A stretch of 64,000 nt of DNA from an uncultured Verrucomicrobiota bacterium (GCA_964654645.1 CAZZJO010000048.1:400-64399), one strand, 5' to 3'. Shown: positions 48,006 through 51,822, counted from the stretch's first letter. The notes: generated from the letters alone by a model not told the origin. Made by a program: numbers and translations.

Positions 48006-49790
48006 TTAAAGCATAGTTGATTCAGTGAACAGGCGATCCCACCAGGTAAGATCTATTGGGCGAATCAATTCGAAATTGCAAAGTCGTATCTCGGGTAAGC
48101 CATCTGGCATACAAACAAGTTTCTGAGCGGGATCCAACGTCAACAGCAAGTGGTCAGGCTTGGGATTAAGGTCTTCAAATCCAAGCTTGGTAATTTGGGC
48201 GAGGTACCTTGCCATGATCTCTTCTAATTGGCTTCGGGTGATTAATCCCTGGTTTAAAGCTTCCTCTGCATTCACGCCAGTATAAAACAACCCGTCGTGC
48301 TCAGCCAAAAACTCATCCGGACCATTCCAATATCCCCAAATTGTTATGTAATCGTATCCGGGAGCCAATAGCGGCTCCTCAAAAGGCCCGTGCATTTGTG
48401 AAAACCGCTTATACCTGCTAAAATCGAATATCTCGAAATCTTTCAGTTTACGACCCGTCACGTAAATGGCACGCGGATACGTGGTGGGCAGTCCCCTTCG
48501 AGACAACTCCAAAGCAATTGCAAACTCTTCAAAGGGCGAATTATAACCCCATTCAGCAGCTCTCTCCGAAAGAGGCCTGTCGCCAGTGACCCTTTCACCC
48601 ATTCTAGAGACGCGCCAAACCAAGTTTACGTTGTCCTTGGTTTTAGTGTGAAAGACGTTGTTGCGGGGTGACAAACTACGTTTAGGCGTGCGGCGCCAAC
48701 GTTCTGGCAAGAAAAAATTTAAAAGGTCAGGGTCGCGACCCACTACCCATAAAACTCCGCCTGTGCTAACTGCCCGACCCACAATGTAATCCACTCCTAA
48801 TACACGGGCCCGTTTAAGGTGAGGCGGTGGAGTCTGGGCAATGGGGGACTCGAAGCGTTTCGCCATATGGATGAGATATACCTTGCGGTGAGCGGCTCGG
48901 ACAGCATCTTCGTGTGCAGAGGTTCGCTGAAGAAGTTCATAGTCCACCACTGCGTATATAACTTGGCCATTGCGATCGCGAACGGGTTTCCCGTCACGCA
49001 AACGCAAAATTATGTGCTCGGGTTTCATATCAATCATCTGATAACCCTTTAGTGCCAGCTCGTGTGAAGCCACACCGGTTAACCACCCAAAAAAGTTCAC
49101 CCTTTCCTCATCTTTCAATCCCATCAACTCAGCAGCTTTTGCCGCATCAATCCCCTTGATCCAACCAAAAAGCAAGACGTATTGTCTGAGAATATCAATT
49201 TCCACCCCTGGGTGTTTCGCAATCTTGGCTCGGATTTTTTCTTCACACCGACCTGTTTGCCAAAGTTGAAGGCGTTGACCAGGCACATAAATCGCTAACG
49301 GGTATTGGGTTCGCACACGAATCCCTGGCGGGCCAAAATCTCCACGTCTGAGCTCCATCAACAATGCAAATTCTTCAAATGGACTATTGAACTCAGCATT
49401 GACAAACTTAGTTACGGTAAGCGTATCAAGCGGAACTTCTTCACCCACACGCGACCACTTTACCACCAATGTGTACACTCGACCGTCAACCGGGCGGGTA
49501 GGCAACTTGTAAATAGTGCTTGTGCCTTTCAGTCGTTCGCCCTGGGTCTCAAGCCATTCCCGCGCATACCAGTTTTCGGGCAAAAGGCTTCTCCACAGTG
49601 GTAAACCGTAACGCGTCAAATACAAGTCCCCACCATCTGGTGTCTTTAGCCACACATAATCCACTCCTAAAATCGAAACATGCTGGCTTAGGAACCTCGT
49701 ACCATTATACACAAATGTTGATAGCCCCAAATTGTTAAACGTGGCTATTTTGAGCTCGTCATTCCCCATCACGATTAAATAGTAAAGCAC
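48006..49790 (-). CDS. Internally duplicated protein-kinase-like-fold protein (Kdo/WaaP/RIO-like atypical kinase repeats), function unknown
   Basis: Two homologous halves, about aa 38-290 and 328-578. They share ILGVDYVW/VLGVDYIV, LVVKWSRVGEEV/LVWRVSRMGERV, FNSPFEEFALLMELRRG/YNSPFEEFAIALELSRRG and YPLAIYVPG/YPRAIYVTG. Kinase-like catalytic and DFG-like motifs are IDMKPEHIIL + VDYELL (half 1) versus EDLNPKPDHLLL + CNFELI (half 2). Start is GTG 49790 or ATG 49769, 6-27 nt after the thiC stop. Confidence 0.6.
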   Translation of the reverse strand: MLYYLIVMGNDELKIATFNNLGLSTFVYNGTRFLSQHVSILGVDYVWLKTPDGGDLYLTRYGLPLWRSLLPENWYAREWLETQGERLKGTSTIYKLPTRPVDGRVYTLVVKWSRVGEEVPLDTLTVTKFVNAEFNSPFEEFALLMELRRGDFGPPGIRVRTQYPLAIYVPGQRLQLWQTGRCEEKIRAKIAKHPGVEIDILRQYVLLFGWIKGIDAAKAAELMGLKDEERVNFFGWLTGVASHELALKGYQMIDMKPEHIILRLRDGKPVRDRNGQVIYAVVDYELLQRTSAHEDAVRAAHRKVYLIHMAKRFESPIAQTPPPHLKRARVLGVDYIVGRAVSTGGVLWVVGRDPDLLNFFLPERWRRTPKRSLSPRNNVFHTKTKDNVNLVWRVSRMGERVTGDRPLSERAAEWGYNSPFEEFAIALELSRRGLPTTYPRAIYVTGRKLKDFEIFDFSRYKRFSQMHGPFEEPLLAPGYDYITIWGYWNGPDEFLAEHDGLFYTGVNAEEALNQGLITRSQLEEIMARYLAQITKLGFEDLNPKPDHLLLTLDPAQKLVCMPDGLPEIRLCNFELIRPIDLTWWDRLFTESTML

Positions 49791-49796
49791 CTCGGC

Positions 49797-51596
49797 TTAT
49801 CCAAAAGCATGCCTATTTTCGGTTTCAATTTCTTTCCTAGTCTCCTGAGTTATCCGCATCGCACAGTAACGTGGTCCACACATGGAGCAGTAAGCTCTTT
49901 GGGAGCCTTGTCCGCCACAAGCAGGATGATCACCGTGCAGTCTCCGGGCAGTTTCTCCATCCAAACTTAGCTTGAACTGATCATCCCAGTTAAATCCAGC
50001 CCGTGCGAGGCCCATTACGTAATCCCTGTAAAATGCAGCGGGATGCCCTTTTGCTATATCCGCCGCATGTGCGGCGATCTTGTAAGCAATCACACCCTGT
50101 CGAACGTCTTCGGGCTCTGGCAATCCTAAATGTTCCCTCGGCGTCACGTAACAAATCATCGCGGCCCCATACCATGCGATCTGCGCAGCCCCAATGGCAC
50201 TTGTTATATGGTCATATCCTGGAGCGATATCAGTGACCACAGGACCGAGCGTATAGAAAGGCGCCTCGCAACACCACTCCATTTGCTTCAATACGTTTTC
50301 CTCAATTAAATGTATGGGTATATGACCAGGGCCCTCGTTCATTACTTGCACCCCGTGATCCCATGCCCGCCGCGTAAGTTCCCCTTGCACTTTTAACTCG
50401 CTAAATTGCGCTTCATCATTTGCATCCGCAATGGACCCAGGGCGTAACCCGTCACCAATGCTCACCGCCATATCGTACGCTGCCAAAATCTCACAAATCT
50501 CATCCCAGTGCGTATAGAGAAAGTTTTCACATTTATGTTTGGCGCACCATTGAGCAATGATTGCCCCGCCCCGCGATACAATACCTGTAACTCGGTTTAC
50601 CGCAGCTGGCAACGCCTCACGTAAAAGTGCAGCATGGATAGTTACATAGTCGACACCTTGCTCCGCATGTTCGATCAATGTGTCACGGAAAATCTCCCAT
50701 GTTAGTTCCTCTGGAATACCTCCTACTTTTTCCAAGGCTTCATAGATGGGCACTGTCCCAACAGGCACCGGCGAGTTCCGAATTATCAACTCCCGAGTCT
50801 GAGTTATATTAGGGCCGGTGGACAAATCCATCACCGTGTCAGCTCCCCAAATCACCGCCCAGAACATTTTTTCCAACTCCTTTTCTGGACCGGAGGCAAT
50901 AGCGGAACTTCCAATGTTCGCGTTCACCTTCACCAGGAAGTTCCGCCCAATAATCATTGGTTCGGCTTCTGGATGATTTACATTTGCCGGTATGATTGCA
51001 CGGCCCCGGGCCACCTCATCCCTCACAAACTCGGGGGTAACCACCTCTGGAATTTGATAACCGTATCGTCGCAGCGTAAACGGGATTGTTTCAGCTAACG
51101 GCCGCGCTTTTAATCCAAGCTTACCCCATTGCTCACGCATCAATTCCAATCCCATATTTTCCCTTATCGCCACAAACTCCATTTCCGGGGTAATTTCCCC
51201 TGAACGTGCCGCAGCCAATTGTGTGATCCTATTCCCAGCCTTTGCCCTAAAAACAGGGCGCAACCCGTCCTCCCATCCCTTGGGCATGAGACCCACTTTA
51301 CCACTAGTGGGGAAATGACCTTCTGGCAATGGGACTTTTTTGTAACATTCAATCCCACTTCGACGCAATACCCAGCTTAGTCGGACCGGCAATAATCCTT
51401 CACCCAATTTGCCACTCCACTCGGCATCGCCCCATAATCCCGTGGTGTCATACAAAAAAACCGGCAGCGCCTCGCCTTTCTGTCCACAGGAAATCATGAC
51501 TTTACGGAAAGGAACCCGTACATCCGGGTAGAGCCTCCCCGGCAGGTAAACACGTTCCCCTGCCAGTAAGGTACAGTATGGATGTCGATCACGCAT
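49797..51596 (-). CDS. thiC: Phosphomethylpyrimidine synthase ThiC
   Basis: 599 aa, radical-SAM ThiC. Blocks: [75 protein letters not shown], and the C-terminal [11 protein letters not shown] cluster motif. A TPP riboswitch precedes it. Confidence 0.96.
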
Positions 51597-51684
51597 TTTG
51601 TCTAAACTACGCCTATAACCAGGCCATTTGGCACAGTGCTACAACACTAGCCTTGCAGCTACCAGCGTTGTTGAGGGTTTCTCA

Positions 51685-51822
51685 GATCTTAGGATCCCTC
51701 CGCCAGTATTACCTGGATCAGGTTCAACGGGTTTCCCTGTGCCCCCGCACAGGGATCTCAGCCTTCGCTCGCTTGTTTAAGTGCGAGTCTGGGCAGCACC
51801 CCAAAACCATACCTAACCTATC
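51685..51822 (-). promoter_or_regulatory. TPP (THI-box) riboswitch in the thiC leader
   Basis: The minus-strand RNA reads ...UUUUGGGGUGCUGCCCAGACUCGCACUUAAACAAGCGAGCGAAGGCUGAGA-UCCCUGUGCGGGGGCACAGGGA-AACCCGUUGAACCUGAUCCAGGUAAUACUGGCGGAGGGAUCC... It contains the canonical GGGGUGC, GCUGAGA, ACCC and ACCUGAUC..GGUAAUAC..GGCG.AGGGA elements in the canonical order. It ends about 90 nt upstream of the thiC ATG. Confidence 0.88.

Follow-up and report, generated by a model that had tools for sequence, protein, structure and literature searches.

A thiC gene under a TPP riboswitch and the predicted kinase/pseudokinase tandem encoded behind it in a Verrucomicrobiota genome

Introduction

The most common context of a thiamine pyrophosphate (TPP) riboswitch is the leader of thiC, and with few exceptions a gene that follows such a riboswitch is related to thiamine. 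The locus described here lies on a 64,000-nucleotide stretch of DNA of an uncultured Verrucomicrobiota bacterium (GCA_964654645.1 CAZZJO010000048.1:400-64399; this whole stretch is referred to as the window), in which such a riboswitch and thiC are directly followed, on the same (minus) strand, by a gene for a protein of up to 594 amino acids. In an original prediction, made from the sequence alone, the two genes were regarded as one riboswitch-controlled operon, and the second protein as a tandem kinase-fold protein that might be a salvage kinase for thiamine or a pyrimidine precursor, or else a regulator of that pathway.

Several described systems offer themselves for comparison. Thiamine kinase ThiK, of the APH family (PF01636), is an obvious one given that the second gene adjoins a thiamine gene. 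In the Hanks kinases (PF00069; e.g. PknB, CaMKII, ULK1 and STK16) the catalytic loop reads HRDLKPEN, the lysine two positions after the aspartate (D+2) being a signature of protein Ser/Thr kinases. Tandems in which a single chain holds one active kinase domain and one kinase-fold domain lacking the catalytic aspartates are familiar from JAK (JH1/JH2) and from the plant tandem kinase-pseudokinases. A 'minimal' kinase grade has furthermore been described for Rio, Bud32 and KdoK (PMC1821047). WaaP, which phosphorylates heptose of the lipopolysaccharide (LPS) core, is a bona fide kinase with a reduced C lobe that resembles the Rio kinases, and in which H168 is essential (PMC6147952).

Set against these systems, the locus is best read (with a probability of roughly 0.65) as an ordinary TPP-riboswitch-controlled thiC followed by a gene of a large, uncharacterised kinase/pseudokinase family, with the adjacency of the two genes being specific to a lineage rather than the sign of a thiamine function. 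The second protein would be a fusion of two homologous protein-kinase-like (PKL) domains, of which the N-terminal one is active and the C-terminal one a pseudokinase, and its place behind thiC would reflect the gene order of this species and of one relative at 66% identity. Our best guess is an ATP-dependent phosphotransferase whose substrate is either a protein or an envelope glycolipid, and in which the C-terminal domain has a regulatory or substrate-binding role.

Results

Two homologous kinase-like domains in one protein

The N-terminal and C-terminal halves of the second protein are homologous, both by direct BLASTP comparison (28% identity, E=5e-14) and by hhalign (probability 99.7%, E=8e-27 over 243 columns), which, together with the structural matches described below, bears out the tandem kinase fold of the original prediction. 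A full-length AlphaFold model (mean predicted local confidence, pLDDT, of 72.7) was too weak in the N-terminal domain and was replaced by an AlphaFold2 model of residues 24-320, based on a deeper alignment of 68 tandem and single-domain sequences. This model is confident (pLDDT 93.5, predicted template modelling score 0.89), and a Foldseek search with it against the PDB returned 1,963 matches at E<=10, of which the top 50 were all protein kinases with a probability of ~1.0, including STK16, CaMKII, haspin, ULK1, CK1, IRE1, YopO and PknB. The full-length model likewise retrieved only kinases, in the same kind of list. The order of secondary-structure elements in the model (beta1-3, alphaC, beta4-5, alphaD/E, catalytic loop, beta7-8, the DFG-like motif and alphaF) fits the PKL topology.

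The functional elements of a kinase follow one another in the N-terminal domain in canonical order, i.e. a Gly-rich loop (G89-T-S-T-I-Y), the beta-3 lysine (Lys111, predicted counterpart of the ATP-binding lysine in the kinase 'VAIK' motif), the alpha-C glutamate (Glu140, in NSPFE-E140-F), the catalytic aspartate (D254, in D-M-K-P-E-H) and the metal-binding aspartate of a DFG-like motif (D283, in DYE). In the catalytic loop, His259 stands at the position of the canonical kinase Asn. Invariant in all 68 relatives are W74, R114, P137, F138, E140, R181, Y204, G213, D254, K256, H259, R263, D283 and E285, with K111 being nearly so. Judging from the model and these residues, the N-terminal domain is predicted to be a catalytically competent, ATP-dependent phosphotransferase.

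Some 30 residues after the DFG-like motif, either modelled domain comes to its end with one long helix. With only this helix past D283, the domain lacks the activation segment and the substrate-binding helices of Hanks kinases, and it is for this reason that it is grouped with the 'minimal' atypical kinases (the Rio/Bud32/Kdo-WaaP grade).

The C-terminal domain appears to have kept the fold, but not the catalytic aspartates. The counterparts of K111, D254 and D283 are R/K393, N542 and N572, respectively, and among 26 orthologs N572 is invariant and N542 is conserved in at least 90%. Both catalytic aspartates are thus replaced by asparagine throughout the family, which is a pseudokinase signature. 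By analogy with other kinase/pseudokinase pairs, the C-terminal domain would be a non-catalytic module that either regulates the N-terminal domain or holds the substrate. The arrangement resembles JAK JH1/JH2 and the plant tandems in having, per chain, one kinase-fold domain with the catalytic residues and one without the two aspartates. It differs from them in that the protein is unrelated to them in sequence, comes from a bacterium, consists of minimal domains and has its predicted active copy at the N-terminus.

Comparison with named kinase families

At the sequence level, the protein could not be assigned to any named family. Searches of Pfam, NCBIfam, PADLOC and the PDB sequences gave no match to it (a weak one to CtsR_C, at E=0.15, was dismissed as chance). 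Among the 68 family members, Pfam at E<=5 yielded no recurrent kinase family, with a single match to ABC1 at E=0.28, and a profile search of the PDB sequences with the N-domain alignment yielded no match either.

ThiK shares a kinase-like fold with the protein in a broad sense only. There is no detectable similarity in hhalign against E. coli ThiK (probability 0.1), and PF01636 was matched neither by the protein (E<=1) nor by its 68 relatives (E<=5). The catalytic loops differ as well, being HMDVHAGN in E. coli ThiK and IDMKPEH (i.e. (I/V)-D-M-K-P-E-H) in the protein of the window, in which the APH/ThiK motif H-x-D-x-x-x-x-N is not present. The original prediction is supported in so far as the 594-aa protein is uncharacterised and is like none of the known thiamine enzymes.

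With WaaP there are a number of likenesses. Both have a minimal domain with a short C lobe and a histidine five positions after the catalytic aspartate (D254...H259, against D162...H167 in E. coli WaaP; the catalytic loop in WaaP of E. coli and P. aeruginosa reads H-R-D-C-Y-I-C-H), a resemblance that was read by eye and is not statistical. Further shared features are the 'KW' at the beta-3 lysine ('VKWS', against 'LKWH' in WaaP of both species) and an insert between this lysine and the alpha-C glutamate. On the other hand, the protein has a lysine at D+2 where WaaP has a tyrosine, and D-Y-E where WaaP has D-L-H, and it is a tandem with a degenerate second copy, encoded outside any LPS core gene cluster. 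Comparisons by hhalign were insignificant throughout, with probabilities of 0.16 against the single sequence of E. coli WaaP, 1.1 against that of E. coli WaaY (a short alignment with the hinge and the catalytic loop in register) and 0.08 against a profile of 15 WaaP sequences, which is a narrow one, having been built from enterobacterial sequences of 74-95% identity; the N-terminal against the C-terminal domain served as the positive control (99.7%). PF06293 was matched neither by the protein nor, at E<=5, by any of the 68 family members, and the WaaP structure 6DFL is not among the top 50 Foldseek matches.

The best structural matches are Hanks kinases, which have the same order of motifs and whose HRDLKPEN loop is close to the D-x-K-P-x-(N/H) loop of the family. 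Compared with them, the protein lacks the His and Arg of HRD, the activation segment, the APE motif and helices alphaG-alphaI; the PF00069 profile was not matched, in line with the empty PDB sequence and profile searches. Of the relationships that had been considered in the original prediction, the kinase fold itself was thus recovered (by Foldseek), while a match to either the Kdo/WaaP family (PF06293) or the APH family (PF01636) was not.

A large family, mainly of Verrucomicrobiota

Of the candidates scored, 2,841 clusters (at 90% identity) belong to the family, all of which are unnamed or called 'hypothetical' and none of which carries a precomputed Pfam domain; at the 50% level there are 612 representatives. 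Relatives are encoded in 286 stretches of species-representative genomes, of which 80 loci were kept for context analysis; their labels are nearly all Verrucomicrobiota, Limisphaerales or 'subdivision 3'. Over 540 residues the orthologs share ~60% identity, and long parts of the alignment do not vary at all. Single-domain relatives of ~300 aa, which match the N-terminal half only, were found in Phycisphaerae, Mucisphaera, a Methyloceanibacter genome and unassigned metagenome contigs. On the whole, the family is mainly a Verrucomicrobial one, to which Phycisphaerae and a few other bacteria add the single-domain relatives. A search of the literature found no relevant description of a Verrucomicrobial kinase/pseudokinase family.

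One member of the family (P0132, 726 aa, from outside the window) has a GNAT acetyltransferase domain fused to the N-terminus of the tandem kinase-like protein, and at 4 of 76 loci a separate GNAT gene lies just upstream of the kinase-like gene, while in relatives of 65% identity it is found two genes upstream. These cases hint, if weakly, at a connection with the acylation of proteins or small molecules.

Gene context of the orthologs

The context of the orthologs was examined in the 80 species-level genome loci (56-64% identity, with 6-kb flanks), of which those that extend for more than 300 nt upstream of the gene, 77 in all, were counted. None of these 77 has thiC. Among 57 further metagenome and look-up loci, thiC was found at a single one (L095), together with the same riboswitch; being 96% identical, L095 comes from the same organism. 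A regular expression for the TPP riboswitch core, which finds the riboswitch of the window, detected nothing in any locus other than L095, and Rfam reported no TPP riboswitch at the gathering threshold in the 10 loci tested. Outside the species, thiC is kept in the nearest relative (P0002, 66% identical, at locus L085), in which it (79% identity) lies directly upstream of the kinase-like gene with a gap of 88 nt, in which no terminator was found. The lineage of P0002 is the only independent one that keeps this order. The window sequence recurs in metagenomes of Great Boiling Spring at 77 C, and the adjacency of the two genes is confined to one small clade that is apparently thermophilic.

Neither is there another partner with which the gene is consistently associated. 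Its immediate neighbours are divided about 50/50 by strand, with no Pfam family present at more than 4 of the 76-78 loci, and the search for a conserved operon partner (clustering of the open reading frames (ORFs) of the 80 loci, plus Pfam on the immediate neighbours) yielded only clade-limited blocks. These include a gene for a KdsB-like cytidylyltransferase, situated downstream in the same orientation (at 11 of 80 loci, which belong to a single clade), an rpsB-tsf block (8 of 80), an NMO-like gene upstream (11 of 80) and, in the relatives of 65% identity, a block of GNAT, an unknown gene, the kinase-like gene, HemD and BatD. A gene for an HldE-like heptose kinase/adenylyltransferase adjoins the single-domain relatives in two Phycisphaerae genomes, in convergent orientation.

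Following these results, the salvage kinase or pathway regulator of the original prediction is left unsupported, as the orthologs lie consistently away from thiamine genes and riboswitches. An identity of ~60% across the whole class, combined with neighbours that vary, rather suggests one common function that is unrelated to thiamine. The YjbQ-type gene to which the prediction had also pointed is indeed present (PF01894/UPF0047, E=8e-37), but it lies 8 kb from thiC on the opposite strand, appears monocistronic and has no riboswitch, so it is unlinked; a scan of ~25 other ORFs in the window revealed no thiamine gene.

The riboswitch, thiC and the transcription unit

The riboswitch scores 58.5 bits (E=6.6e-9) over the full RF00059 model (1-105 of 105), the gathering score being 54.3. 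It is essentially the THI-box element originally predicted at 51685-51822 on the minus strand, and it is the only Rfam match in the 64-kb window. It is located in the 5' leader of thiC, 84 nt upstream and on the same strand. The thiC gene itself had been called correctly, given that the protein exceeds the cutoffs of two NCBIfam equivalogs (NF006763, 835 bits against 650; TIGR00190, 637 against 460) and matches both PF01964 (583 bits) and the ThiC-associated domain PF13667 (49 bits). The riboswitch and thiC are an ordinary, textbook pair. Like other RF00059-controlled thiC genes, this one has an aptamer that exceeds the curated threshold and encodes a full-length ThiC in which the two Pfam domains are present, and nothing about it is unusual except for an expression platform without an evident terminator. 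That is, in the leader between aptamer and start codon no hairpin followed by a U-run was detected by terminator scan and RNA folding, nor an obvious Shine-Dalgarno sequence by reading the sequence. In the absence of an intrinsic terminator, the switch may act on thiC translation or through Rho, and with control at either of these levels its effect on the second gene is uncertain, which counts against placing that gene in a thiamine regulon. The features of the locus are collected in Table 1.

Table 1. Coordinates of the features discussed (positions counted from the first nucleotide of the window)
Feature	Position	Strand	Basis
TPP (THI-box) riboswitch aptamer	51680-51813	minus	Rfam RF00059
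Leader between aptamer and thiC ATG (expression platform)	51597-51679	minus	sequence read, terminator scan, RNA fold
thiC, phosphomethylpyrimidine synthase (radical SAM), 599 aa	49797-51596	minus	Pfam, NCBIfam
thiC/second-gene junction	49770-49796	minus	6 nt to GTG 49790, 27 nt to ATG 49769
Gene for tandem kinase-like protein	48006-49790	minus	ORF; 594 aa longest, 587 aa from ATG 49769
N-terminal kinase-like domain, residues 24-320	48831-49721	minus	AlphaFold2, Foldseek, invariant residues
LVVKWSRV, predicted beta-3 strand with Lys111	49446-49469	minus	translation, conservation, model
DMKPEH, predicted catalytic loop (D254, K256, H259)	49014-49031	minus	translation; D, K, H invariant in 68 relatives
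DYE (D283), DFG metal-binding counterpart	48936-48944	minus	translation; D and E invariant
C-terminal duplicated domain, pseudokinase-like, residues 321-594	48009-48830	minus	hhalign, motif alignment
NPKPDH...CNFE, degenerate catalytic and metal-binding motifs of C-terminal domain	48069-48167	minus	translation, alignment
Terminator-like hairpin, then GGTTTTTATT; candidate end of transcription unit	47913-47929	minus	77 nt past stop of second gene
YjbQ/UPF0047 gene	41112-41531	plus	PF01894

The short distance between the two genes, as originally described, was confirmed from the sequence. The earliest start of the second ORF is a GTG 6 nt past the TAA of thiC, and the public gene call (P0001, 587 aa) starts at the ATG 27 nt past it. 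Other proteins in the 90% cluster of P0001 are called at 568 aa; the first ~35 codons are not conserved and alternative starts exist, with some gene calls beginning at residue 27, which would widen the gap to ~85 nt, i.e. close to the 88 nt in P0002. The prediction that no terminator or promoter separates the genes holds as far as consensus scans go, in that neither a terminator-like nor a sigma-70-like site is recognisable at the junction, and no promoter-like site was found on the minus strand at 49800-50200 by a scan that knows the sigma-70 consensus only. A gap of 6-27 nt makes co-transcription the default expectation and, with both genes on the same strand, abutting, and with no recognisable terminator or promoter, it is plausible that thiC and the second gene are co-transcribed in this genome. 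Expression of the second gene may then drop when TPP is abundant, although this would be no sign of a thiamine function.

The unit might end at the terminator-like hairpin behind the second gene, which was found by consensus scan only, in a region where the count of such sites equals the expectation from shuffled sequence. The hairpin lies in a non-coding gap of 450 nt (47557-48005) between the kinase-like gene and the convergent recG, in which there is no Rfam match.

Discussion

Alternative explanations

The case for a thiamine function is easily stated. The second gene lies within 6-27 nt of a riboswitch-controlled thiC with no terminator in between, the same order is found in the nearest relative (66% identity), its N-terminal domain looks catalytically competent in the model, and genes in such a position generally belong to thiamine metabolism. 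A new kinase for the salvage of thiamine or 4-amino-5-hydroxymethyl-2-methylpyrimidine (HMP), or a regulator of thiamine synthesis, that functionally belongs to the TPP regulon is nevertheless very unlikely, considering that neither thiC nor a TPP riboswitch accompanies the gene in the 77 genome loci and the 56 remaining metagenome ortholog loci (by regular expression, and by Rfam in 10), that the family stays ~60% identical across the class while its neighbours vary, and that it has no similarity to ThiK/APH, its D-x-K-P-x-H loop being of the protein-kinase type rather than H-x-D-x-x-x-x-N. A more elaborate version, in which an undescribed PKL family (a minimal kinase with its own pseudokinase copy and a D-x-K-P-x-H loop) has been recruited into the TPP regulon in a thermophilic Verrucomicrobial lineage, where it would phosphorylate a thiamine precursor (e.g. 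in HMP salvage, replacing ThiD) or modify or regulate ThiC, we consider highly improbable. A different question is whether there is a two-gene regulon at all, as the second gene could have a promoter of its own, situated inside thiC near the 3' end or else within the variable 5' part of the second gene itself, so that the riboswitch controls thiC alone. The leader without an intrinsic terminator would allow translational control that is local to thiC, the first ~35 codons are not conserved (with a start at residue 27 leaving a gap of ~85 nt), and every other species expresses the gene from a different context. This possibility deserves to be taken seriously but is somewhat doubtful, given that no promoter-like site is seen on the minus strand just upstream, at least by the sigma-70 consensus.

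As for what the protein does, its similarities to WaaP raise the possibility of a diverged sugar kinase of the envelope or LPS core, of the WaaP/Kdo-kinase type. The shared D+5 histidine, the 'VKWS'/'LKWH' strand, the reduced Rio-like C lobe of WaaP and the essential nature of its H168 (PMC6147952) all fit, as do the KdsB-like gene downstream at 11 of 80 loci and the HldE-like gene beside the single-domain relatives; but the hhalign probabilities (0.08, 0.16 and 1.1) and the lack of PF06293 matches in 68 members at E<=5 and of 6DFL in the top 50 do not, and the KdsB and HldE neighbours are limited to single clades, the latter being convergent and not co-oriented. Such a kinase is unlikely. Still less is to be said for a kinase-like fold without phosphotransfer, i.e. 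one with other chemistry or a pure binding or scaffold protein, even though a histidine replaces the Mg-binding Asn, a Glu replaces the Gly of DFG, half of the protein is already degenerate, and there are precedents for atypical chemistry in kinase folds (SelO reportedly catalyses AMPylation and SidJ glutamylation). The residues that phosphotransfer requires (the Lys, Glu, catalytic Asp and metal-binding Asp) have all stayed invariant in the N-terminal domain over large distances, and WaaP has the same histidine, yet is a bona fide kinase.

The reading of the locus as an ordinary riboswitch-thiC pair in front of a kinase/pseudokinase gene has its own weak points. The Foldseek template modelling scores are only ~0.3, with a root-mean-square deviation of ~8 A and a best E-value of 3.6e-4, and no sequence profile (Pfam, PDB, or hhalign against ThiK, WaaP and WaaY) ties the family to any kinase family, so the assignment as a kinase is a predicted one that leans on modelled structure and motif logic. 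In addition, the adjacency to thiC has been kept across a protein identity of 66%, which is some evolutionary distance and leaves room for functional recruitment in this lineage, and a missing sigma-70 consensus is compatible with an internal promoter in a Verrucomicrobial genome.

Significance of the family

The value of the locus lies in its second gene, which represents thousands of sequences that are ~60% identical across Verrucomicrobiota and are named only 'hypothetical protein'. From the confidently predicted structure and the motifs that do not vary, this family falls into the protein-kinase-like superfamily as a probable kinase/pseudokinase tandem. Verrucomicrobia are abundant in soils and peat, and the substrates of bacterial atypical kinases (WaaP, Rio-like and Bud32-like) tend to be important and non-obvious; if the substrate of this family were identified, the microbial kinome would gain a new branch. 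The locus also illustrates that one genome is insufficient to assign a gene behind a riboswitch to its regulon, the thiamine inference having been removed here by comparative genomics.

Other observations at related loci and in the window

On two unrelated contigs (L155:2019-5970 and L089:1590-5858), a single-domain relative is tightly clustered with a protein of the Sua5/YrdC family and a DUF4914 protein of ~620 aa, the latter being 59% identical from one contig to the other. The gene orders differ between the contigs, and the kinase-like gene overlaps the Sua5 gene by 4 nt. The pairing of Sua5 with a single-domain kinase-like protein recalls that of Sua5 with the minimal kinase Bud32 in the synthesis of t6A (threonylcarbamoyladenosine). 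Near the tandem form neither DUF4914 nor a Sua5/YrdC domain was found, with loci L012, L050 and L063 matching only the N-terminal, hydrolase-like part of the Sua5 protein of L089. At two Verrucomicrobial loci, the kinase-like gene is followed downstream by Acido-Lenti-1 RNA motifs (L008:8381-8426; L013:9087-9131 and 9237-9281), which score 41-45 bits with RF01687 (gathering score 37); the one at L008 is situated just upstream of rpsB.

Within the window, an Fe-S assembly cluster is encoded on the minus strand at 35958-40545 (SufBD-core, a NifU-like scaffold, FeS_assembly_P and a SufS-like class-V aminotransferase, plus a 337-aa ORF without a Pfam match). ThiC is an Fe-S radical-SAM enzyme, and no evidence links it to this cluster. 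Upstream of the riboswitch, two large sensor proteins are encoded on the minus strand with a 4-nt overlap (52115-58170), namely a 721-aa hybrid PAS-HisKA-HATPase protein with two receiver domains and a 1,297-aa multi-PAS histidine kinase; a copy from a metagenome (L081) has two ORFs in place of the 721-aa gene, owing to a frameshift or an assembly error. Unrelated to the thiC locus are a 2-thiouracil desulfurase with a DUF1722 protein (34896-35846, minus strand) and a 1,073-aa DUF6298 protein (28674-31895, plus strand; 656 bits), the genes of which are adjoined by that of a GH2 glycosidase.

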